Of a stretch of 64,000 nt of DNA, positions 21,608 through 53,020 are shown in pieces. The stretch is taken from positions 154,889-218,888 of the forward strand of contig CAVSDB010000002.1 of NCBI GenBank assembly GCA_963726755.1, given 5' to 3'. A program made the position numbers and the translations under genes. The notes below the pieces were generated by a model. It had not been told where the DNA came from. It saw nothing but the letters and a program-made list of their open reading frames with translations, and did no database searches. Position 1 is the stretch's first letter; each line of letters opens with the position of its first letter. The stretch is from an uncultured Actinomycetota bacterium. GTDB lineage: Bacteria; Actinomycetota; Actinomycetes; JAHEKZ01.

Positions 21608-21633
21608 CCTGTGGAGGCCGCGGCCTCCACAGG
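21608..21633. repeat. Perfect 26-bp palindrome CCTGTGGAGGCCGCGGCCTCCACAGG
   Basis: Equals its own reverse complement. An identical copy lies at 52969..52994. Confidence 0.9.
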
Positions 21634-21642
21634 CAAAAGGGA

Positions 21643-21668
21643 CCTGTGGATCCCGCGGGATCCACAGG
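21643..21668. repeat. Perfect 26-bp palindrome CCTGTGGATCCCGCGGGATCCACAGG
   Basis: Equals its own reverse complement. An identical copy lies at 52907..52932. Confidence 0.9.
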
Positions 21669-24000: not shown

Positions 24001-26219
<2,219 letters not shown>

Positions 26220-26230
<11 letters not shown>

Positions 26231-27262
26231 CTCTGTCGCGCAGCCGTCGACCTGCGTCCACCACTGCACGGTACGCGGGAGGTACGTCAGTTTGCGAGAC
26301 AGCGCTGAGGCCACACCCCGGCGTGAGAACGACTTGATCCAGGCGCTTGACTTCCAGCCCGGTGCGGTCCCACAGACCTACCACCGGAGCTATGAATTGC
26401 TCGCCCGCAGGCTGTTCGCTAGGCGTCGGAGGATCGGTCGGACCCGGCAGCAACCACCCGCCAGCCTCCACCCACTCTGCCAACTCCACCTCAAGCGGTC
26501 TCGACGTCGAGAACCCGCATGTCCAGACCCAAACCAGCCGCTCCGATTCTCCGAATCAAGCCCACGGGTACCTCGTCTGAACAGCAGTGCACGACCGTTG
26601 CCGTCACATGTTCGTTGGCCGTTGTGACCAGGGCACTCAATACGCGCTCAACTTCCTCAGTTGAGACAGGTGCAACCCGACCCCAACCACTTGCAGTTCC
26701 CATGGCGCCGGACAACACCGACGGCAACAGCGGTTCGTCGAGCTGCAACAGAATGCTCATCGCGGGTAGTCGCCTGGCGATGTCCGACACCCAAGTCGCG
26801 ATCCCCTCGGTCAAACTCTCGGCCAAGTCGCGACGGGCGCCTTCGTCAGCCAGCGGCTCGGTGACCACGGTTCGTCTCGACCGAAGCTGCAAAGGTCAGC
26901 GGGCCGACCACTTGCACCTTGAACCAGCCTGAGTAGCCGCTGAACACCTCTTCGACGACGTCAACGTCCTGAGCCAACAGCGAGCGAGCACGTCGAACGT
27001 CAGCGCCTGGTCGCGTACCCAACCGCCAACCGCGAACATCGAGTTCGGTCGGCACATCCACCAGGAGCGCCGCGCCGCGTCCGACGCTCGTCGCAGCTGG
27101 ACCGCGATCCGGCAGTTCCGCTAGGTAGGGCAGATCGGTCAGCAGATCGGCAATGGACCTGGTCGCTTCCATCGGATCTGACCCGGGCAGCGCCCCGGTC
27201 CCAGTCACCGAGCCGGCTGGCCATCGTTTCGCCGCCGGGGCGTCGGGGTCGATCGAGGTCAC
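26220..27262 (-). CDS. Cobalamin-independent methionine synthase (MetE C-terminal-like) family protein, two frameshifts; Rv3015c-like
   Basis: Three consecutive minus-strand ORFs (26846..27262, 26491..26892, 26220..26489) sit in the position of M. tuberculosis Rv3015c between ligA and mnmA. Confidence 0.55.
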
Positions 27263-29543: not shown

Positions 29544-30497
29544 TCAGCCTTTGCGTTTGACCACTTCGTCGGTCAACTGAGGCAACACCACGTGCAGGTC
29601 CCCGACGACGCCGAAGTCGACGAGGTCAAAGATCGGCGCCTCGGGGTCCTTGTTGACGGCGACGATGGTCTTGGAGGTTTGCATGCCAGCTCGGTGCTGG
29701 ATCGCGCCGGAGATGCCGTTCGCCATGTAGAGCTGCGGCGAGACGGTCTTGCCGGTCTGACCGACCTGGAACTGGTGCGGGTACCAACCTGCGTCGGTCG
29801 CTGCTCGCGAGGCACCGACGGCCGCTCCGAGACTGTCGGCCAGCGCCTCGACGACGCCGAAGCCCTCGGGACCGCCCACGCCACGGCCACCCGAGACGAC
29901 GATTGCCGCCTCGGTCAACTCGGGGCGTCCGGCCCGCTCCTCCATGACTCGCTCGACGATGTGCGCGCCGCGGTCAACATCAGAAAGGTCGACGGCGATG
30001 TCGACCCTGGCACCGGCGGCCGCGACCGCCTCTGGCGCGATTGCGTTCGGGCGGACCGCGATGATCGGCGTGCCGTGCGTGACCTTGGCGTTCACGACGG
30101 TTGAGCCACCGAAGACGGACTGGTTGGTCACCATCGCGTCGCTGACCGAGACGGCGTCGGTGATGACACCGGAGCCGAGTCGAACCGCGAGTCGGCCTGC
30201 GACCTCTTTGCCCTCAGCCGTCGACGAAACCAGGATCGCAGCGGGCGATGCCTGCGCAGCAGCTGCTTGCAGCGCCGCAACCTTGGGAGTCGCGACGTAG
30301 TCATCAACGCCGGCACCGGTGGCGAGGTAGATCTTCTCGGCACCGTTTGCGGTCAGATCGTCGACGGCGTTCTCGCCGCCGTCTCCGACAACCACCGCGC
30401 TCGGCTCACCCATGGTGCGCGCCAGTGTCAGCAGTTCGTGCGTGACCTTCTTGACGTCGCCCTTTGCGTGCTCAACGAGCACCAAGATCTCAGACAT
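29544..30497 (-). CDS. etfA: Electron transfer flavoprotein alpha subunit
   Basis: The FAD-binding C-terminal domain ...[27 protein letters not shown] is present; intact 317 aa. Confidence 0.9.
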
Positions 30498-30521: not shown

Positions 30522-31313
30522 TCAGATGAACTTCTGCGCGGACAAGAACTCGGCGAGCTTCACGCCGCCGTCACCTTCGTCGGTGACGACCGTGCCAGCC
30601 TGCCGTGGCGGCCGCGTTGCAAAGGTCTCGACCCCACTCCATGAACCACCGAGTCCGACCTCGGCAGCGTCTACGCCGAGGTCGCTGAGCGTCAGCGTCT
30701 CGACCGGCTTCTTCTTGGCAGCCATGATCCCCTTGAACGAGGGGTAGCGAGGTTCGTTGATCTTTTCGACGACGCTGATCACTACGGGCAACGTGGCTTC
30801 AACGGTGTCGTAGCCGTAGTCGGTTTGCCGTTGGATCCGCACCGACTGACCGTCGAGGTCGACCTTGTTCGCGAACGTCAACTGCGGACGCCCTAGGCGC
30901 TCGGCCACCATCGCCGGCACGACCGACATCCGAGCATCGGTCGACTCTGAACCCATCAACACGACCTCGGGGCCGAGCCGCTCGATGGCTTGGGCCAACA
31001 CTCGGGACGTGCCGACGGCGTCTGTGCCGTGGAGCGCATCGTCAACGACGTGCACGCCCTGGTCGGCACCCATCTGCAGACCCTTACGGACGCTCTCGAG
31101 CGCCTTTTCCGGTCCCATGCTGAGCACCGTGACAGTGCAGGCGTCGGCGCCGCCAAGTTTTTCTTGGATCTGGAGGGCCTCTTCGATCGCGAACTCGTCG
31201 AGTTCGTTCACGACGGCATCGCTGGCGTCTCGATCCAGGGTGTTGTCTGAGGGATCAAGCTTCTTCTCGGCCCAGGAGTCGGGCACCTGCTTCACACATA
31301 CGACGATGTTCAT
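30522..31313 (-). CDS. etfB: Electron transfer flavoprotein beta subunit
   Basis: Start taken at MNIVVCVKQVPD (31313). The ORF extends upstream to 31496 without homology. Confidence 0.88.
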   Translation of the reverse strand: MNIVVCVKQVPDSWAEKKLDPSDNTLDRDASDAVVNELDEFAIEEALQIQEKLGGADACTVTVLSMGPEKALESVRKGLQMGADQGVHVVDDALHGTDAVGTSRVLAQAIERLGPEVVLMGSESTDARMSVVPAMVAERLGRPQLTFANKVDLDGQSVRIQRQTDYGYDTVEATLPVVISVVEKINEPRYPSFKGIMAAKKKPVETLTLSDLGVDAAEVGLGGSWSGVETFATRPPRQAGTVVTDEGDGGVKLAEFLSAQKFI

Positions 31314-31386
31314 GACGGCTCGCGCCGACCTCCTGTTCTTTGCCCCACTTGCCAAACCCGAGTTGTCAAGAGCATCCGGCCCGCAC

Positions 31387-31431
31387 CCGGTGACGTCACC
31401 GGAAGTCTGCCAGACGGATTGGATCCAATCC
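31387..31431. promoter_or_regulatory. Three abutting palindromes upstream of etfBA: CCGGTGACGTCACCGG, GTCTG-C-CAGAC, GGATTGGATCCAATCC
   Basis: Perfect 16-bp palindrome at 31387..31402, an 11-bp palindrome at 31405..31415 and a perfect 16-bp palindrome at 31416..31431. A fourth TATCA-AA-TGATA lies at 31450..31463. All lie 75-140 nt upstream of the etfB start. Confidence 0.7.
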
Positions 31432-31511
31432 TTAGCCGGGTCATTTTGCCTATCAAATGATAGCCAGTCGCGATTCTCCTGGCGAATGGGCTCCAACCAA
31501 GGGACGAGAGG

Positions 31512-34500
31512 TCACCTGCGTTTGAGGTATAGCGGTTCGGCGATGACTCCGTGGCGTGCGCGGATGCTGTCTCGCTCCGGTACCAGACTCATGAGGCTCC
31601 CACTGCCTGGGACCAACTCTTCAAGCGCATCGATGCACCTCGCCACTTCGATATCCGCGCGGCTGCGTCGCGCGCGGTCCAGTGTCGACTCAATATCCGA
31701 GACCGCCTCAGAGTGTCCGAGCTGCGCCATCGCCAAGCCGGCGAGCCGTGCCGCAGTTACAGCAACCACTTGGTCCGGCGCGAGCGCAGCGAGCGAAGGA
31801 CTGATCTGCCGGTAGAGGTCAAGAGCCGACTCGCTGTTCCAGGCGAGCACGAGAGCCTCGAGTTGATACACCTGGATGTCGAGCAAGGTGCGGGGGTCCA
31901 ATGACCCCCTCGCCTGGTCGACCACATCGGCAATCTCCTGGGCCGCCTTGGCCGCCTCCACCGTCCCTGACTCTCTCGCTCGCCCTCGCAGTAAGGATGC
32001 CTGAGCCAAGTGCGACAACGGCCCGCCTGCGGCCCGGAGCACGCGTTCGCAGTTCACGTTCATCTCTGCCGCCATCTGCAGGTGCCCCTGTTCAAGCACA
32101 ATGCCCGCTCGGTTGAGGCGGGTGATGGCTTCCCCGACGACGGTCCCACTGCGGCTGAACGCCTCCTCCGCCTCAGCGAAGCTTGCCAGGGCTGCCGGCC
32201 AATCGCCGCGAAACATCTGATCGGTTCCGAGGTCTAAGAGCGAGGCTCCGAGCAACTCGCCGGCATCCTCGACCCGAAGAATCTCAATCGCCTCCTTGAC
32301 GGCGATTTCGGCATCCCGGCGATGCGCCAAGGTTCGCGACAGGTATGCCTGCAGAAGGGCTTCGGCCAGGAGCACCGGACTGTCCAAGACGCGAGCTTGG
32401 CTAAGGGCATGCTCGGCGTCGGCGCTGCTCTCCTGGGATTTCTCTTGGAAGCATCGGGCCGAGGCACGCTCGATCAACAGTCGCGTCCGTACCTCCAAGG
32501 ATGTGCGTCCCGAGACGCCATCCAGCAGATGGAGACCTTGGTTTGCCCATCGGACGGCCAACGAGTACTGGCCACGCCGACCTTCGACCTGACTACGCAA
32601 AGCAAGGACACGCGCTTGTTCTACCGCGCTCCTCCCCTGCAGCGCCCTCCCGAACGATCGCGAGGCGTCGGCCTGGTCTCCCGCCATGGCCTGCGCTGCT
32701 GCTAGCCGTTCCCAGGTCCGTGCTTGGTAACGCGAAGAGCGACCAGCGCGGGCGCTTGAGACAACGGAGAATCTCGCGCACTCGACGGCCTCTTGTGCCG
32801 CCCCAAGTCTCAACGCCGCCTCGTAGGCGCGGTCTAGCCAAGGTAGGGCTGCGCCATCACGCCGGCCCATCGCCAGGTGTCGACCTACCAGCGCCGCGGA
32901 AATCGACTGGCGGTCCTCGGCATTGCCGGCGGCTTTTGACAACGCGCGCCCGGCCCGAGCATGAATTCGGAGTCGCTCAGCGTGCGGCAAGCCTTCGTAG
33001 GCCACCAGCCGGACCAGATCGTGGCGAAAGGTGAGGCCGTCTCCATTGACGACGACGAACTCGGCAAGTGCGTCCCACCCACCCCGCAACTGAGACAGAT
33101 CACGATCAACTGACTGCGCAATGAGTGCGTGAGAGGGCTCAGCCCCCAGCACGGAAACCTGCCGCAACAATCGCCGGTCGGCTGGCGCGAGCCGATCGAT
33201 CCGGGCGCCGATCGTGCGTTCAGCCGAAACCGGCAGCGAGTCACTGCTCGCACCGCCAGCCACATAGGTGGCTAGCTGAGCTGCGAAGAGTGGGCTGCCA
33301 GCAGCACGGCGAACAATGGCGGAGACATCGGCGTCGCTCAGGGCTCGCTCGCCGGCCGCGTTCACCGCGATCTGCTCCAACACCGCGTCACTCAACGGCT
33401 CCAAATGCACCTCTTCGGAGTCCTCCCACAGACGGGGTGAGTCGGGGCGCCTGGTGGCGACCATCAACCAACCTGATTCCAGGAGCACCCGCTGCAAATG
33501 CTGCAAGAGGCCGCGTGAGGCTGCGTCGAGCCAGTGCGCATCCTCGATCACGATCATTCCGGGAGGTGCCGCTTGCTCGCGGATCAGATCGCCGACCGCG
33601 TATGCCGTGAGGTCGCCCACTCGCGAGGGATCAATCGCCGCGACCTCGGGCGTGCTCGAGGTCGGTACTCCGAGTACCGCTGCGATCAGCGGCAACACCG
33701 CGGAAAGTTCAGCCGGAACAACACTCTGCAGCGTGGACTCCGAGGATAGGTCGGGCAGGTTAGGTGAGCGCGTCTCAACGAGGTTGCGTAGCGGACGCTG
33801 AACAGCACGGTAGGGCAGCGTCGTTCCATAAACGTCTCCGAAGATCGTGGCAGTCGGCTCTCCTGCCCCCCTTAAGAAGGCGGTCAGGAGCTGGGTCTTA
33901 CCACTCCCTGGCGCTCCCACGATTTCCACACTTGCCCCGCGCCCCGCACGGTGGTTGGCCAGCGCCTCATTCAACGTAGCCAGTTCGGCTTCACGACCGA
34001 CAAAGAAGGCATCCGCACGCAGTACCGGCGCCTCCACCGGATCCCCCACGCTGATCGCCAGGACCGGAACTCGCTTACCCTTCAGGGCCAACATCAGGCT
34101 GCCGGCCACCGCGTATCGACCACGAGACCGAGCCATCACCGCCTCGCTGGCAAGAACCTGCCCTAGGGACGCGGCAGCTGCCAGACGTGCGGCCGTATTG
34201 ATGGTGTCACCCAAGGTGGCATAGGTCCGGCGGAGCGGGTGTCCGACGTCTGCGGTGAAGGCCGTTCCGCTGTGGACTCCCACGGCTAGACGTCCGGTGG
34301 GGTCCCGCTCCACCATGCGTCGGACAGCTGCCAACATCAGTAACTCATCGTCATCGGATTGCACCGGCACTCCGGTGAACAGGAGGATCTTCGCGCCATG
34401 GCGACTGACGTCCGTCTCGTAGACCGATACGCCCATCTCGTCCTCGACCGAAGCGACGGTCGCCATCGCCTTGAGCAGTGTCGCTGCGCGGTCCTGGAGT

Positions 34501-35297
34501 GAACGTCCGACCAGTCGAATGTCACCAAAGGCTGCGACAACACGACGATGCTCTGGAGGGGCGTGGCCACTGCGAAGAAGCGAACGCAGCCCCTCTGGGA
34601 CAAATGCCGAGTTGCCCGAGGGTGGTTCAGTTGGATTCCACGACAGCTCCGCCTCCGACATCGAAGCGACTCGAGAACGGGTGAGCCGAACCGCACCGGT
34701 GGGCAATTTCGCCAGGGTCTCACCAGCCACGGCCGTGGCCTCAAGTGCAAGTGCGGAATCGACGCCCGGACCGATCAGGAACCAGTGACGTCGAAACCCT
34801 TCCGTAACGACGAGCAAGGCTCGCCCGGAAGCAACCCCCACTGACATCCGAAGACGGACCGCTCCTCCGTCGGTTTCGACTCTCCCCACCTCTGCGACGG
34901 CTTGCTGCATCCTCACAGCGGTCACGCTGGCGCGCTGAACATGGTGCGTCCCACGAAACACGATGAAGAGGGCGTCGCCACCGAAGAACAGCACGTCGCC
35001 ACCGTGCTGAAGAACGACGTCAATCAGAGACGTGAAGCACCGATTGATCGCATCGGAGATCTGCTCCGCGCCGATCCGACCGTGTCCTGCGAGCCTCTCG
35101 GAAAGTTTGGTGAACCCAGAGATGTCTGCCGACACGAACGTCCCCGCGACAGCCAGCGTCGTCTCCCCCGCGGTTACCTCGGCCAGGATTCGGGGCGTAT
35201 AGGCAGCAACCGGATCCTTCAGCGGAACTTGCCGCCCCCCGGCGCCGTTGCCGATGGCGAAAGTTCCCAGACCCCAGCGTCCTGGAACAGACCCCAA
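31512..35297 (-). CDS. Tandem class III nucleotidyl cyclase (two CHD domains) fused to a STAND/AAA ATPase and TPR array; no LuxR HTH
   Basis: CHD1 (FVSADISGFT...GGDALFIVF) supplies the metal-binding Asp residues. CHD2 (TLGDTINTAARL) supplies the N/R transition-state residues. A Walker A (VGAPGSGKTQLL) follows, and then about 600 aa of TPR-like helical repeats. The ORF is uninterrupted (1261 aa). Confidence 0.8.
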   Translation of the reverse strand: MGSVPGRWGLGTFAIGNGAGGRQVPLKDPVAAYTPRILAEVTAGETTLAVAGTFVSADISGFTKLSERLAGHGRIGAEQISDAINRCFTSLIDVVLQHGGDVLFFGGDALFIVFRGTHHVQRASVTAVRMQQAVAEVGRVETDGGAVRLRMSVGVASGRALLVVTEGFRRHWFLIGPGVDSALALEATAVAGETLAKLPTGAVRLTRSRVASMSEAELSWNPTEPPSGNSAFVPEGLRSLLRSGHAPPEHRRVVAAFGDIRLVGRSLQDRAATLLKAMATVASVEDEMGVSVYETDVSRHGAKILLFTGVPVQSDDDELLMLAAVRRMVERDPTGRLAVGVHSGTAFTADVGHPLRRTYATLGDTINTAARLAAAASLGQVLASEAVMARSRGRYAVAGSLMLALKGKRVPVLAISVGDPVEAPVLRADAFFVGREAELATLNEALANHRAGRGASVEIVGAPGSGKTQLLTAFLRGAGEPTATIFGDVYGTTLPYRAVQRPLRNLVETRSPNLPDLSSESTLQSVVPAELSAVLPLIAAVLGVPTSSTPEVAAIDPSRVGDLTAYAVGDLIREQAAPPGMIVIEDAHWLDAASRGLLQHLQRVLLESGWLMVATRRPDSPRLWEDSEEVHLEPLSDAVLEQIAVNAAGERALSDADVSAIVRRAAGSPLFAAQLATYVAGGASSDSLPVSAERTIGARIDRLAPADRRLLRQVSVLGAEPSHALIAQSVDRDLSQLRGGWDALAEFVVVNGDGLTFRHDLVRLVAYEGLPHAERLRIHARAGRALSKAAGNAEDRQSISAALVGRHLAMGRRDGAALPWLDRAYEAALRLGAAQEAVECARFSVVSSARAGRSSRYQARTWERLAAAQAMAGDQADASRSFGRALQGRSAVEQARVLALRSQVEGRRGQYSLAVRWANQGLHLLDGVSGRTSLEVRTRLLIERASARCFQEKSQESSADAEHALSQARVLDSPVLLAEALLQAYLSRTLAHRRDAEIAVKEAIEILRVEDAGELLGASLLDLGTDQMFRGDWPAALASFAEAEEAFSRSGTVVGEAITRLNRAGIVLEQGHLQMAAEMNVNCERVLRAAGGPLSHLAQASLLRGRARESGTVEAAKAAQEIADVVDQARGSLDPRTLLDIQVYQLEALVLAWNSESALDLYRQISPSLAALAPDQVVAVTAARLAGLAMAQLGHSEAVSDIESTLDRARRSRADIEVARCIDALEELVPGSGSLMSLVPERDSIRARHGVIAEPLYLKRR

Positions 35298-36268
35298 CTG
35301 AACACCGCCGGTGCCGAAGCACCTTCAGGAGCCCAGAAGGCATCACGCGAAACGACCGTTACCGGACCCGATGCTGTCTGGAACTCGCAGGTGGCATACG
35401 CGTCCAGGATCGGCGCGACACCAGTCCGGTCGTCTGCTGTCGGCCACCTAAGGATGCGCTCCTGGTCGTACGACCGCGCGTAAATGGCCGAATCAAACGT
35501 GTCAATCCGAACCACGTTGGTCAGTGGGTCAAGCAAACCTGGGAAACCGTTCGCATCCTCTCCTCGGTAGCCCCACAGCAGCTGCGACGGCCCGGGCGTG
35601 CCGCCGGCGCTGCAAGCGGTTTGGGTTTGCCCGATCATCGGCAGATGAGCCTCAATGGGGCGCCCGGTGTCGTCAGTGGCGGTGACCACCGGATCTCCTG
35701 GACCGCCAGAGGCGTACTGAGCGACGGCAAACCGGTGGGGTACCCACGCATCGCAACCCGAATTCTTGGCGGTAATCGTTAGCCGCCAAGAGTCAGGGCT
35801 GTTCATCAGGTCGGGCTCACCGATGCGAGGGACCTCGAGGACCCAACGGACACGACCACCGTCTGGGAAGCGGATGGCAAACCTGTTCGGGTGGTTGCCC
35901 GGTTGGAATTGGGTGACGACCGGTGGGTTCGATACTGCCGCGAAGGGTTGTTGCGGCCCCGGCGAGACCTCGATCCGGTTGATCGGCGGCCTGTTGGAGA
36001 AGGCGTCGACCCCGTTGTAGCCAAACACCGCCTCTTTGGTGGTGTGGTTGATCCGGCGCACGCAGGTGACTCTTGGTAGCACCGATGGTCCGGTCTCAGG
36101 ACTAAGCCCAGCCAGTGGCTCGATGACTAACTTGAAGGCATTGGTGGTCGTCGTGGACCCTTTGGGGGTGCTCGTGGCGGCACTGACTGTGCCGGTCATG
36201 GATCCGGCGACCAGGGCCCAAGCCGTGAGGGCAGCGAGTGCGGTCCCGAACGCAAAACGCCTGTGCAT
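35219..36268 (-). CDS. Secreted protein of unknown function (signal peptide), immediately upstream of and overlapping the cyclase-STAND gene
   Basis: Start MHRRFAFGTALAALTAWALVAGSMTGTVSAA (Sec signal). Mature about 320 aa with no recognisable motif. The 3' end overlaps the downstream ORF by about 78 nt. Confidence 0.5.
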   Translation of the reverse strand: MHRRFAFGTALAALTAWALVAGSMTGTVSAATSTPKGSTTTTNAFKLVIEPLAGLSPETGPSVLPRVTCVRRINHTTKEAVFGYNGVDAFSNRPPINRIEVSPGPQQPFAAVSNPPVVTQFQPGNHPNRFAIRFPDGGRVRWVLEVPRIGEPDLMNSPDSWRLTITAKNSGCDAWVPHRFAVAQYASGGPGDPVVTATDDTGRPIEAHLPMIGQTQTACSAGGTPGPSQLLWGYRGEDANGFPGLLDPLTNVVRIDTFDSAIYARSYDQERILRWPTADDRTGVAPILDAYATCEFQTASGPVTVVSRDAFWAPEGASAPAVFSWGLFQDAGVWELSPSATAPGGGKFR

Positions 36269-36394
36269 GATTGGCTCACCTTCGCCACGGGCGTCCCTGG
36301 GCGAACCGCCCTGTATAACGGCCTCTCTACACCATTCGCGCTCCCTTTGGGGCCACTTTCCGTACTCGGCCAAGACCCATGCCACCAGGATTCG

Positions 36395-37963
36395 ATGACC
36401 GCCGGTAACTACCTAGATGTCAGCCAGATACATAGGCTGCCTGCCATGACTCCACTGCCAACGACCGAACGCCTCGGCGCGGTTCTTGATCTGATGATTC
36501 CCAGCGCGCGTGAGGAAGCCGGCCACCACAAGTACGACGGGGTGCTCCAGGACTTGTCCAACAGTGCGGTCAAGTCAGGGTTGGACCGACTTGGTGGAGC
36601 CACCCTCGATGACTCACACGACGAGGCACACTTGGCTGCGTTTGAGGCCGGTCTTGTCGTGCTGTTCAGAGATTTGGAAGCGCACCGCACCAACCCACTC
36701 CTCCACCTCAGCAACCTCGACGTCTCCTGCTACCTCAAGGAGTACGCACCGGAAGCTGAACGTCATGAGGCGATGCGCAAACACATCGCTGGCTGGCCGG
36801 ACGCGATCGACGTCGCAATCTCGACGCTCGACCAAGTCGCTGCGCCGGTTGCAACTGCACTCCTGGACGCGATCAAGGGCTTGGGGGCATCGCTGCCGCC
36901 AGACTGGCCGGAGTCCGGACCAGCCAAGGCAGCCCATGCCCGACTGGTCGCACACATCGAGACCTGCGCAAAGACTGGACGTCCTGATGCGGCGATCGGT
37001 GAGAAGGCACTCGCCAAATTCATGGGCACGATCGACGCCAGCACGGTTGATCTCGGCCTACTTGAAGCGAAAGCAGACGCTGAGGGCCTACGACTCCAAC
37101 AAATGCTGGACGAGGCTTGTCAGGCTTTGCGCCCCGGAGCGAGCACCGCGACAACCGTCGCTGAGTTGATTCACGACTCGCCAGCGGCGGACGAACTCGT
37201 CCCGATTGCCCAGGCTCGTACCGCTGAGGTCATCGAGTTCACGCGCAATCAGGATCTGGTCCCTTACATCGACGGCGAGTGCCGCGTTGGGATCGCCCCA
37301 GAGGCTCGGCGCTGGGGCATCGCGATGTTGAGCTGGTCCGCCCCCGGCGAGCCGGACTCGCCATCGCTCTACGACATCACGCCCCCTGACGAGTCGTGGT
37401 CACCCGAGGAGCAGAGCGAGTGGCTGTCGATGTTCAACCCGACGTCAATGCTGGTCATTACCGCACACGAAGTTGCACCCGGACACTTTGCCCACGGACG
37501 TGCACTGCGGCGCGCACCCGGAGCGGTTCGGCAGAGCCTGTTCGGCTACGCCTTCGCCGAAGGGTGGGCGCACTACACAGAGGAACTGATGCTTGAGGTC
37601 GGGTTTCGTTCCGAAGACAAGCGCTTCCAAGTCGGCGTCGCCCTTGAGGCACTTGTGCGACTGACGCGATTGGCGTGCGCAATCGGAATCCATCGCGGGT
37701 CGATGACCGTGGACGAAGCCACCGCTCGGTTCGAGGAGAAGGCGTACGCCGCTCCGCCCATCGCCCGTTCTGAAGCGCGAAGAGGCACCTTCGACCCCGG
37801 CTATGGCATGTACACGTGGGGTAAGTGGCAGATTCTCCAAGCGCGTGAGGAAGCCAAGGCTGCGTGGGGGAATGAGTACACACTTCGTCGGTTCCACAAC
37901 GCGCTGCTCGATCTGGGCTCACCGCCACTTGGACTGATCGGCACGGCGATCGAACGCGGTTAG
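36395..37963 (+). CDS. DUF885-family protein (putative metallopeptidase-like)
   Basis: HEVAPGHFAH motif and overall DUF885-like architecture. Start taken at MTAGNY; the listed ORF begins at 36263. Confidence 0.55.
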   Translation: MTAGNYLDVSQIHRLPAMTPLPTTERLGAVLDLMIPSAREEAGHHKYDGVLQDLSNSAVKSGLDRLGGATLDDSHDEAHLAAFEAGLVVLFRDLEAHRTNPLLHLSNLDVSCYLKEYAPEAERHEAMRKHIAGWPDAIDVAISTLDQVAAPVATALLDAIKGLGASLPPDWPESGPAKAAHARLVAHIETCAKTGRPDAAIGEKALAKFMGTIDASTVDLGLLEAKADAEGLRLQQMLDEACQALRPGASTATTVAELIHDSPAADELVPIAQARTAEVIEFTRNQDLVPYIDGECRVGIAPEARRWGIAMLSWSAPGEPDSPSLYDITPPDESWSPEEQSEWLSMFNPTSMLVITAHEVAPGHFAHGRALRRAPGAVRQSLFGYAFAEGWAHYTEELMLEVGFRSEDKRFQVGVALEALVRLTRLACAIGIHRGSMTVDEATARFEEKAYAAPPIARSEARRGTFDPGYGMYTWGKWQILQAREEAKAAWGNEYTLRRFHNALLDLGSPPLGLIGTAIERG

Positions 37964-52906: not shown

Positions 52907-53020
52907 GCCTGTGGATCCCGCGGGATCCACAGGTGACAAATCGCCCACAGTCCGTCGGTTGATCCACAGCCTGTGGAGGCCGCGGCCTCCACAGGCACGC
53001 AATCCAACAATGCATCCACA
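52907..53020. repeat. Second cluster of CCTGTGGA-N10-TCCACAGG palindromes plus extra TCCACAG half-sites
   Basis: Perfect 26-mers at 52907..52932 and 52969..52994, identical to those at 21643 and 21608. Additional half-sites GATCCACAG (52960), CCCACAG (52944) and GCATCCACAA (53011). Confidence 0.85.

Follow-up and report, generated by a model that had tools for sequence, protein, structure and literature searches.

A candidate composite promoter/operator region with four unlike dyads upstream of etfBA in an uncultured Actinomycetota bacterium

The electron-transfer flavoprotein (ETF) EtfBA links acyl-CoA dehydrogenases to the respiratory chain by passing on their electrons. Its control in actinobacteria appears to be poorly understood, and our literature search found nothing specific on etfBA regulators in this group. 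Several described systems nevertheless offer points of reference. The fixA RNA motif of Pseudomonas, listed in Rfam, is a cis-regulatory leader RNA, whereas operators such as tetO1 (CTATCA-T-TGATAG) and the CRP/GlxR-type site (TGTGA-N6-TCACA) are dyads in the DNA. The AmtR box reads tttCTATN6AtAGat/aA, and TetR recognizes CTATC (PMC2723105). In Mycobacterium smegmatis, 79% of the promoters have an ANNNT motif at positions -6 to -13, which begins with T in 63% of these cases and not in the remaining 37%; a -35 consensus is lacking, and leaderless transcripts account for 24% (PMC6448022). In Mycobacterium tuberculosis, the ETF system is reported to be required for beta-oxidation (PMC8593149). 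Here, we analyze a cluster of palindromes upstream of the etfBA operon in a 64-kb stretch of DNA (contig CAVSDB010000002.1; hereafter the window) from an uncultured member of the Actinomycetota and compare it with these systems.

All genes in this part of the window lie on the minus strand, and the dyads are situated between a gene for an adenylate-cyclase/AAA-ATPase of the STAND type and etfB (31313..30522, start codon ATG at 31311-31313). In the direction of etfB transcription, the elements follow one another as CTATCAttTGATAG, GACCCGG, GGATTGGATCCAATCC, GTCTGgCAGAC, CCGGTGACGTCACCGG, about 55 nt, AGGAGG and ATG. Numbered along the plus strand, dyad 1 (CCGGTGACGTCACCGG) occupies positions 31387-31402 and has 8-nt arms without a loop, dyad 2 (GTCTG-c-CAGAC) covers 31405-31415, dyad 3 (GGATTGGATCCAATCC, with 8-nt arms) covers 31416-31431 and dyad 4 (CTATCA-TT-TGATAG; CTATCAAATGATAG on the plus strand) covers 31450-31463. 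The initial annotation of this DNA, which was made from the sequence alone, had correctly reported three perfect palindromes of 16, 11 and 16 bp, separated by gaps of 2 nt and 0 nt, as well as a fourth dyad further downstream in plus-strand numbering. It had read the latter as TATCA-AA-TGATA, which is indeed present but extends by an outer C/G pair to 14 nt (CTATCA-AA-TGATAG), and it had placed the cluster upstream of etfB, as we do, albeit at a distance of 75-140 nt rather than the 74-150 nt that separate all four dyads from the ATG at 31313. Two of the four dyads overlap sequences that relatives have conserved; these sequences are most likely a promoter box and the site of a repressor. Judged from these comparisons, the four dyads appear to be four unlike elements and not one kind of site. 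We consider it about an even chance that the region is a composite DNA control region in which a conserved box serves as a -10-like promoter element and the dyads represent promoter/operator DNA of etfBA. As a compact bacterial promoter/operator region, it would be ordinary.

Our comparison covered 172 loci encoding EtfB relatives, 80 of them from species-representative genomes, 80 from metagenomes and 12 from contig look-ups, the latter being contigs of close homologs identified by protein search. The metagenome scan returned no relative above 69% identity, and the closer ones came from the protein search and the contig look-ups. The clade of the window comprises 14 lineages, i.e. the window and 13 close relatives, the closest of which (L161) shows 89% EtfB identity. 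Six lineages were included in alignment A3 (mean column identity 51%), and column counts were based on 55 loci anchored on the box TGGCAGNCT. The proposal that the region is tied to etfBA regulation, for which conservation upstream of orthologous etfB genes had been named as the decisive observation, is borne out by this sample: two dyad cores are conserved at this position in relatives, and a third dyad is kept in the closest ones.

The box TGGCAGNCT is found upstream of etfB in about 55 loci of diverse Actinomycetota, including Nonomuraea, Streptosporangium, Planomonospora, Actinomadura, Spirillospora, Nanopelagicales-like metagenome-assembled genomes (MAGs) and unclassified Actinomycetota, and its T, G, C, A, C and T positions are invariant among the anchored loci. 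The local version in the window, TGGCAGACT (31404..31412, minus strand), lies inside dyad 2. The box is usually preceded, 22-24 nt upstream, by a CCC motif, (G)ACCC(G)G, which forms the upstream half of a conserved bipartite motif (GACCCGG at 31436..31442, minus strand, in the window). Two fixed columns 25-27 nt before the box contain C in 54/55 and 55/55 sequences, and the spacing from the CCC motif to the box is 23 nt in the window and 20-26 nt within its clade. Each matching locus has a single occurrence of the spaced combination of CCC and TG[GA]CA[GC]NCT, which is located on the etfB strand and, in 42 of these 43 loci, upstream of etfB; in the 64-kb window, the box is present in a single copy. 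All clade lineages but one (L004) carry it (13/14). Outside the clade, the box is non-palindromic and reads TTTGGCAGGCT, whereas the TCTGgCAGA symmetry is retained throughout the clade of the window. Dyad 2, which the initial annotation had included among stacked operator sites, is thus better described as a clade-specific symmetric form of an asymmetric conserved box. In Streptosporangium oxazolinicum, tandem repeats of the box (TGGCGGTCTTG TTGCAGTCTTG TGGCAGTCT TGGCAGCG; L022, ~2880-2925) with a period of 9-11 nt are reminiscent of the direct-repeat binding sites of response regulators. A TGGCAGNCT box with a CCC partner at a fixed distance upstream of etfB has apparently not been described before.

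With respect to its role, we propose that the box may act as an extended -10-like core element of the form TGn + C-A-N-N-N-T, which would place the start of transcription near 31397/31396 on the minus strand, 7-8 nt beyond the final T of the box. This geometry is taken from the leaderless promoters of the DUF885 genes in the clade and from the start-site statistics of M. smegmatis (PMC6448022). The hexamer CAGACT (31409-31404) resembles actinobacterial SigA-type -10 elements (ANNNT or TANNNT, with or without TGn) in having an A at its second position (A31408) and a T at its sixth (T31404), both of which are invariant in 55/55 anchored loci, and in being preceded by TGG. DUF885 genes are preceded by TAGGCT, or the variants TACGCT, TACCCT and TAACCT, 6-8 nt before their ATG in every lineage examined (36430-36448 in the window) and are evidently leaderless in this clade; apart from the extended TGn, the box, TGG-CAGNCT, differs from this TAGGCT at one position. 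In the box-less lineage L004, a TAGGCT sequence is located 7 nt before dyad 3. In L167, whose etfB upstream region is rearranged, the box is followed after 8 nt by the ATG of etfB, without a Shine-Dalgarno sequence, an arrangement that corresponds to the geometry of a leaderless promoter. In 9 of 13 clade intergenic regions, there is no TANNNT on the etfB strand at all. Mycobacteria need no -35 consensus (PMC6448022), and the base composition downstream of the box, with a T-rich position +6 (42% vs 15% background) and 53-60% purine at +7/+8, weakly fits a start at +7/+8. Moreover, DUF885 directly adjoins etfB as its divergent upstream neighbor in all 13 other lineages of the clade; therefore, a promoter dedicated to etfBA must lie within the intervening stretch of about 190-260 nt. 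With the box as the -10 element, the three abutting dyads would therefore blanket the core promoter, spanning positions -34 to +11 and thus the footprint of RNA polymerase, with dyad 3 at -34 to -19, dyad 2 at -18 to -8 and dyad 1 at -5 to +11, while dyad 4 would be centered at -59.5.

Several observations weigh against this interpretation. The hexamer does not conform to TANNNT, since it carries a C instead of a T at -12 in 55/55 loci. The box is conserved over 9-11 positions across orders, far more strictly than an ordinary -10 hexamer, and its fixed-distance CCC partner would fall at about -41, which is no -35 position. Distant relatives possess a good sigma-70-like sequence, TTGnnn-17-TAACAT, 45-98 nt upstream of the box, so that in these species the box itself is probably transcribed as well. 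In addition, TANNNT would be absent by chance from about one in three G+C-rich regions of 200 nt, and L167 represents a single rearranged locus. The start site and the binding proteins of the favored model are predicted features. It is tempting to speculate that (G)ACCC(G)G-N22-24-(TT)TGGCAGNCT could constitute an undescribed, operon-specific control element of etfBA that is shared by several actinomycetotal orders and groups (Streptosporangiales, Nanopelagicales-like and unclassified lineages) and read by a dedicated factor. This factor could be an activator or alternative sigma factor or, if the leader is recognized as unstructured RNA, a regulator that binds RNA. Such a factor would couple the expression of the ETF for beta-oxidation to a signal, with GATTGGATCCAATC as a second, lineage-specific input inserted in the spacer. 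We assign this possibility a low probability.

A number of other roles for the box and its partner were considered and rejected. As a -35 element (TTGGCA/TTGACA), the box would lack a partner, because nothing is conserved downstream at the distance of a -10 element. A sigma-54 -24 element is at odds with the spacing to TTGC, and Actinobacteria are, to our knowledge, devoid of sigma-54. If the CCC motif and the box formed a -35/-10 pair, the spacer would measure 24-25 nt, and a promoter on the reverse strand would be without a -10 element. A small upstream open reading frame (ORF) or an N-terminal extension of EtfB (the frame is open to 31496) is incompatible with motifs that are 28 nt apart, which is not a multiple of three, and separated by a variable spacer; an extension is also excluded by the uniform EtfB N-termini, M(N/K/D)IVVCVK. 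Finally, an anti-Shine-Dalgarno role of GACC(C/T) would involve only 4 bp of pairing.

The second conserved element is dyad 3. A core of 12-14 nt of GGATTGGATCCAATCC is kept in 10 of the 14 close lineages: the sequence ATTGGATCCAAT is found unchanged in L003, L004, L009, L161, L162, L164/165, L168/169 and L171 and with 11 of 12 matches in L002, invariably 2 nt before TCTGGCAGACT. Within alignment A3, no other invariant block of the intergenic region is as long as GATTGGATCCAATC. In L001/L166/L172, L163, L170 and L167, by contrast, dyad 3 is lost, with no hairpin in its stead. Because it is invariant where present, lost outright elsewhere and never replaced by a compensating hairpin, we read dyad 3 as behaving like a protein site. 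GATTGGATCCAATC combines dyad symmetry with conservation among orthologous promoters, as expected of an operator, and would also overlap the footprint of RNA polymerase if transcription starts at the predicted position. It is therefore a probable operator for a dimeric DNA-binding protein, which, bound at -32 to -19, could compete with the polymerase. We know of no operator that it matches. The idea of stacked operators put forward in the initial annotation is hence reasonable for GATTGGATCCAATC and for CTATCA-NN-TGATAG, but it does not extend to the three abutting dyads as equivalent sites. A point against a pure protein site is the outermost pair of dyad 3, which varies in a complementary fashion (G-C in the window, C-G in L161/L164/L171 and A-T in L004). 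This hints at pairing but falls short of significance (about p = 0.1 if the lineages are independent).

These complementary changes, which yield three versions of the outer pair, bring up an alternative in which the dyads act as RNA. In this scenario, transcription would start near 31450, at a promoter containing TATCAT, and generate a 5' leader of about 137 nt that includes all three abutting dyads. The dyads would then form hairpins, of which GGAUUG-GAUC-CAAUCC and CCGGUG-ACGU-CACCGG would be the stable ones, and affect the stability, processing or translation of the mRNA, or a small RNA or a protein would bind the UGGCAGNCU box in its single-stranded form. The only match to a promoter consensus in the region, TCGCCA-17-TATCAT, indeed lies upstream of the dyads, and the strong TTGnnn-17-TAACAT sequence of distant relatives is similarly placed upstream of the box. 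Like the fixA RNA motif and other cis-acting leader RNAs, the motif is a conserved, strand-specific element upstream of an etfB/fixA homolog that is confined to one operon. The two 16-nt dyads fold better than shuffled sequences (z = -2.7 and -2.6), and 6-8 lineages show a hairpin-capable dyad of variable sequence after the box.

However, the structural tests do not bear out this alternative. Neither the region itself (at E values up to 10) nor 20 related loci (at the gathering score) gave a relevant match in Rfam, RNAalifold predicted a consensus structure with 0 pairs for the 55 sequences, and a scan for column-pair covariation detected no stacked covarying column pairs or helices. Thus, neither a covariation-backed structure nor a match to a curated family, by which a structured cis-regulatory RNA would be recognized, was found. 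The folds of the segment from the CCC motif to the box are mutually inconsistent between sequences, and the duplex energies of the box with its own flanks equal those with shuffled flanks (mean z about 0), so that no excess complementarity is evident. Apparent compensatory hairpins noticed by eye in L098, L104, L120 and L033 failed the latter test. The fold of the whole 153-nt leader is not more stable than those of shuffled sequences (z = -0.05), and the hairpins formed by the individual dyads are modest (-7.1, -2.2, -10.8 and -5.1 kcal/mol, with -10.8 for dyad 1). Moreover, lineages without GATTGGATCCAATC have no replacement hairpin, most members of the clade have no recognizable promoter upstream of the box, and in L167 the box closely precedes the start codon. 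The combination of two sequence motifs at a fixed distance, whose spacer varies in sequence and in which no structure is found, therefore points to recognition as DNA, and we regard an action of the dyads as RNA as rather improbable.

Dyad 1 differs from its neighbors in that it is specific to the lineage of the window: CCGGTGACGTCACCGG is represented in 1/14 lineages of the clade and missing from the other 13, which argues against its inclusion among stacked operators. Its TGACGTCA core had been likened to a CRE. It does hold GTGA and TCAC, but the half-sites (GTGA-CG-TCAC, i.e. GTGA-N2-TCAC) are 2 nt apart and not 6, as in a CRP-type site, and the box is followed, not preceded, by this dyad, whereas relatives carry true GTGA-N6-TCAC(A) sequences in the same intergenic region. 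The resemblance is thus superficial, and dyad 1 qualifies neither as a CRP site nor as a functional analog of the eukaryotic CRE. At the corresponding position, L161 reads CCGGTGATTCCACGAC, and other lineages have different dyads, namely ACTGAC-N6-GTCAG in six loci, with conserved arms and a variable center, GACTC-N5-GAGTC in L003 and CCGCACAG-N11-CTGTGCGG in L164. Within the favored promoter model, dyad 1, at -5 to +11, would be a recent lineage-specific gain that serves as a new operator covering the start site or else is a perfect palindrome of no functional consequence.

The latter option leads to a more far-reaching alternative, namely that the tight packing of the dyads is coincidental and that only the box and GATTGGATCCAATC matter, with the symmetric flanks of the box and the 16-nt CCGGTGACGTCACCGG being neutral. 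A template-switch mutation (quasi-palindrome correction) from GTGATTCCAC to GTGACGTCAC could have made CCGGTGACGTCACCGG, and the sequence of L161, which lacks dyad 1 like the other relatives, differs from the window at only a few adjacent bases at this site. The density of dyad symmetry, which the initial annotation had called well beyond chance at a G+C content of 67%, is in fact less exceptional. The G+C content of the window is 63.4%, and comparable clusters arise in 3.5-4.5% of simulated windows: among 400 order-2 Markov simulations of the 64-kb window, 3.5% reached 43 palindromic bases in 50 nt, the coverage of the window itself, and 4.5% contained two dyads with arms of at least 8 nt within 50 nt. 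The cluster is unusual for one window, yet several such clusters are expected per genome. The suggested search for recurrence of each palindrome, made within the window, yielded no further copy of any of the four dyads (at up to 3 mismatches, or 1 for the 11-mer), and among the 172 loci the dyads occur only upstream of etfB. The asymmetry of the box outside the clade is also in line with coincidence, but the clade-wide retention of its symmetric form speaks against it. So does the finding that other lineages have a dyad right after the box as well, with ACTGAC-N6-GTCAG in six loci suggesting a regulatory slot. Overall, we think it unlikely that the packing is a mere coincidence.

Dyad 4 is set apart from the cluster and shows similarity to operators of the TetR family. 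It has the half-sites of tetO and the spacing of the AmtR box, CTAT-N6-ATAG (CTAT-CATTTG-ATAG in the window), and it resembles tetO in overlapping a -10-like hexamer, TATCAT. On the other hand, its center is one base longer than that of tetO, and its flanks are GG...GC, compared with ttt...at in the AmtR box. Pfam scans of 16 neighboring ORFs detected no TetR-family protein, and we know of no report of etfBA as an AmtR target. In L161, dyad 4 is represented by the perfect dyad CTATCATATGATAG (CTAT-CATATG-ATAG) and in L167 by CTAgCAAGTGATAG, whereas other lineages have GTGA-N6-TCAC or GTTAC-N6-GTAAC instead. CRP-like sequences, (T/G)GTGA-N6-TCAC(A), are located at ~505-521 in L162, ~1063-1079 in L164, ~45-62 in L171 and ~2789-2804 in L001, as a representative of the L001 group; in L162, L164 and L171, the distance from them to the TGGCAGACT box downstream is exactly 31 nt, and in the window the corresponding place is taken by dyad 4.

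Apart from TATCAT, the intergenic region of the window has no TANNNT on the etfB strand. Together with TCGCCA at a distance of 17 nt, this hexamer forms a candidate sigma-70-type promoter (31457..31485, minus strand), the only match of a consensus scan in 31000-31900, with 0.1 expected in shuffles. Dyad 4 would thus probably be the operator of a second, upstream promoter. Elsewhere, a module consisting of TTGnnn-17-TAAC(A/C)T, with the dyad G(T/C)TAC-N6-GTAAC over the spacer and the -10 element, is widely conserved 40-215 nt upstream of etfB (L005-L160). It occurs in Micromonospora, Kutzneria, Jatrophihabitans, Nocardiopsis, Streptosporangiales and many MAGs, but not in the clade of the window, and is probably the main etfBA promoter, with its operator, in those taxa.

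The gene order provides a further argument on the function of the dyads. As noted above, the direct upstream neighbor of etfB in the 13 close relatives is the divergent DUF885 gene. The window alone among the 14 lineages has a co-directional gene at this place, the 1261-aa adenylate-cyclase/AAA-ATPase gene (35297..31512, minus strand), with DUF885 located from ~36446 onward on the plus strand. A comparison of the gene orders indicates that about 4.9 kb (~31500-36430), holding the cyclase/STAND gene and a 388-aa ORF, were inserted between DUF885 and etfB. The 388-aa ORF has no Pfam match, and its start resembles a signal peptide. The conserved upstream elements remained with etfB despite this insertion; together with the divergent orientation of the upstream neighbor in the relatives, this therefore identifies them as control elements of etfB and not as a terminator of the STAND gene. 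Hairpins that terminate or insulate read-through from the cyclase/STAND gene, a role raised in the initial annotation, would accord with the fact that only the window has both a co-directional upstream gene and the G+C-rich dyad 1 and, with a start at ~31397, the full hairpin would form in read-through transcripts only. Yet no terminator-like site was detected in 31000-31900, none of the dyads is followed by a U-tract (the sequence after dyad 1 reads GUGCGGGCC), and the stems are weak (-2.2 to -10.8 kcal/mol). Moreover, relatives with a divergent upstream gene have conserved dyads 2, 3 and 4, and dyad 1 lies 110 nt past the stop codon of the cyclase/STAND gene. We therefore consider a terminator or insulator very improbable.

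Closer to the start codon, a Shine-Dalgarno sequence, AGGAGG (31329-31334, minus strand), lies 15 nt from the ATG of etfB, and GGAGGTCGGC is widely kept 17-20 nt before the etfB ATG. In the window, the interval contains a small hairpin, CGGC-GCGA-GCCG (31316-31327, minus strand). Read by eye, the bases and loops of this stem vary across loci while its complementarity is kept, e.g. GGCC-ACC-GGCC and GGCT-CTA-AGCC, which hints at a structure that may shorten the effective spacing. Further upstream, about 35-45 nt before the ATG, there is an imperfect box-like sequence, TTTGGCAAGTG (31346-31356), preceded by a perfect TTGACA (31364-31369) 7 nt upstream, with no -10 hexamer at 16-18 nt beyond; L001 and L166 have GCTGGCAAGCAT at a similar position. 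Most members of the clade also share a block, GCGGCC(C/G/A)GAC(C), 25-45 nt after the box and past the post-box dyad, which reads TGCGGGCCGGA (31375-31385) in the window.

Downstream of etfB, the minus strand continues with etfA (30497..29544), a class-V aminotransferase gene (iscS-like) and mnmA. The gene for an NAD-dependent DNA ligase (24001-26314) seems split or frameshifted, with one ORF (25673..26314) encoding the N-terminal NAD-binding/adenylation part and an overlapping one (24001..25845) the remainder. The CCTGTGGA palindromes, to which the cluster had been linked, consist of perfect 26-28-nt dyads such as CCTGTGGATCCCGCGGGATCCACAGG, which are paired at 21608-21668 and 52908-52996. 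A related copy, GGATCCACAGCCTGTGGATTCC, is found in the rearranged upstream region of L167 (1108-1135). This family looks like a dispersed REP/MITE-like element of the clade that is unrelated to the etfB dyads, and we found no link between the two.

Collectively, the main value of these findings lies in the conserved TGGCAGNCT box and its CCC partner, which are shared by many Actinomycetota, rather than in the palindrome cluster. The dyads placed around this fixed box differ by lineage, comprising GATTGGATCCAATC, CTATCA-NN-TGATAG, GTGA-N6-TCAC and GTTAC-N6-GTAAC. They represent candidate operators and promoters for a central step of fatty-acid catabolism and may illustrate how regulators are exchanged while the core remains constant.

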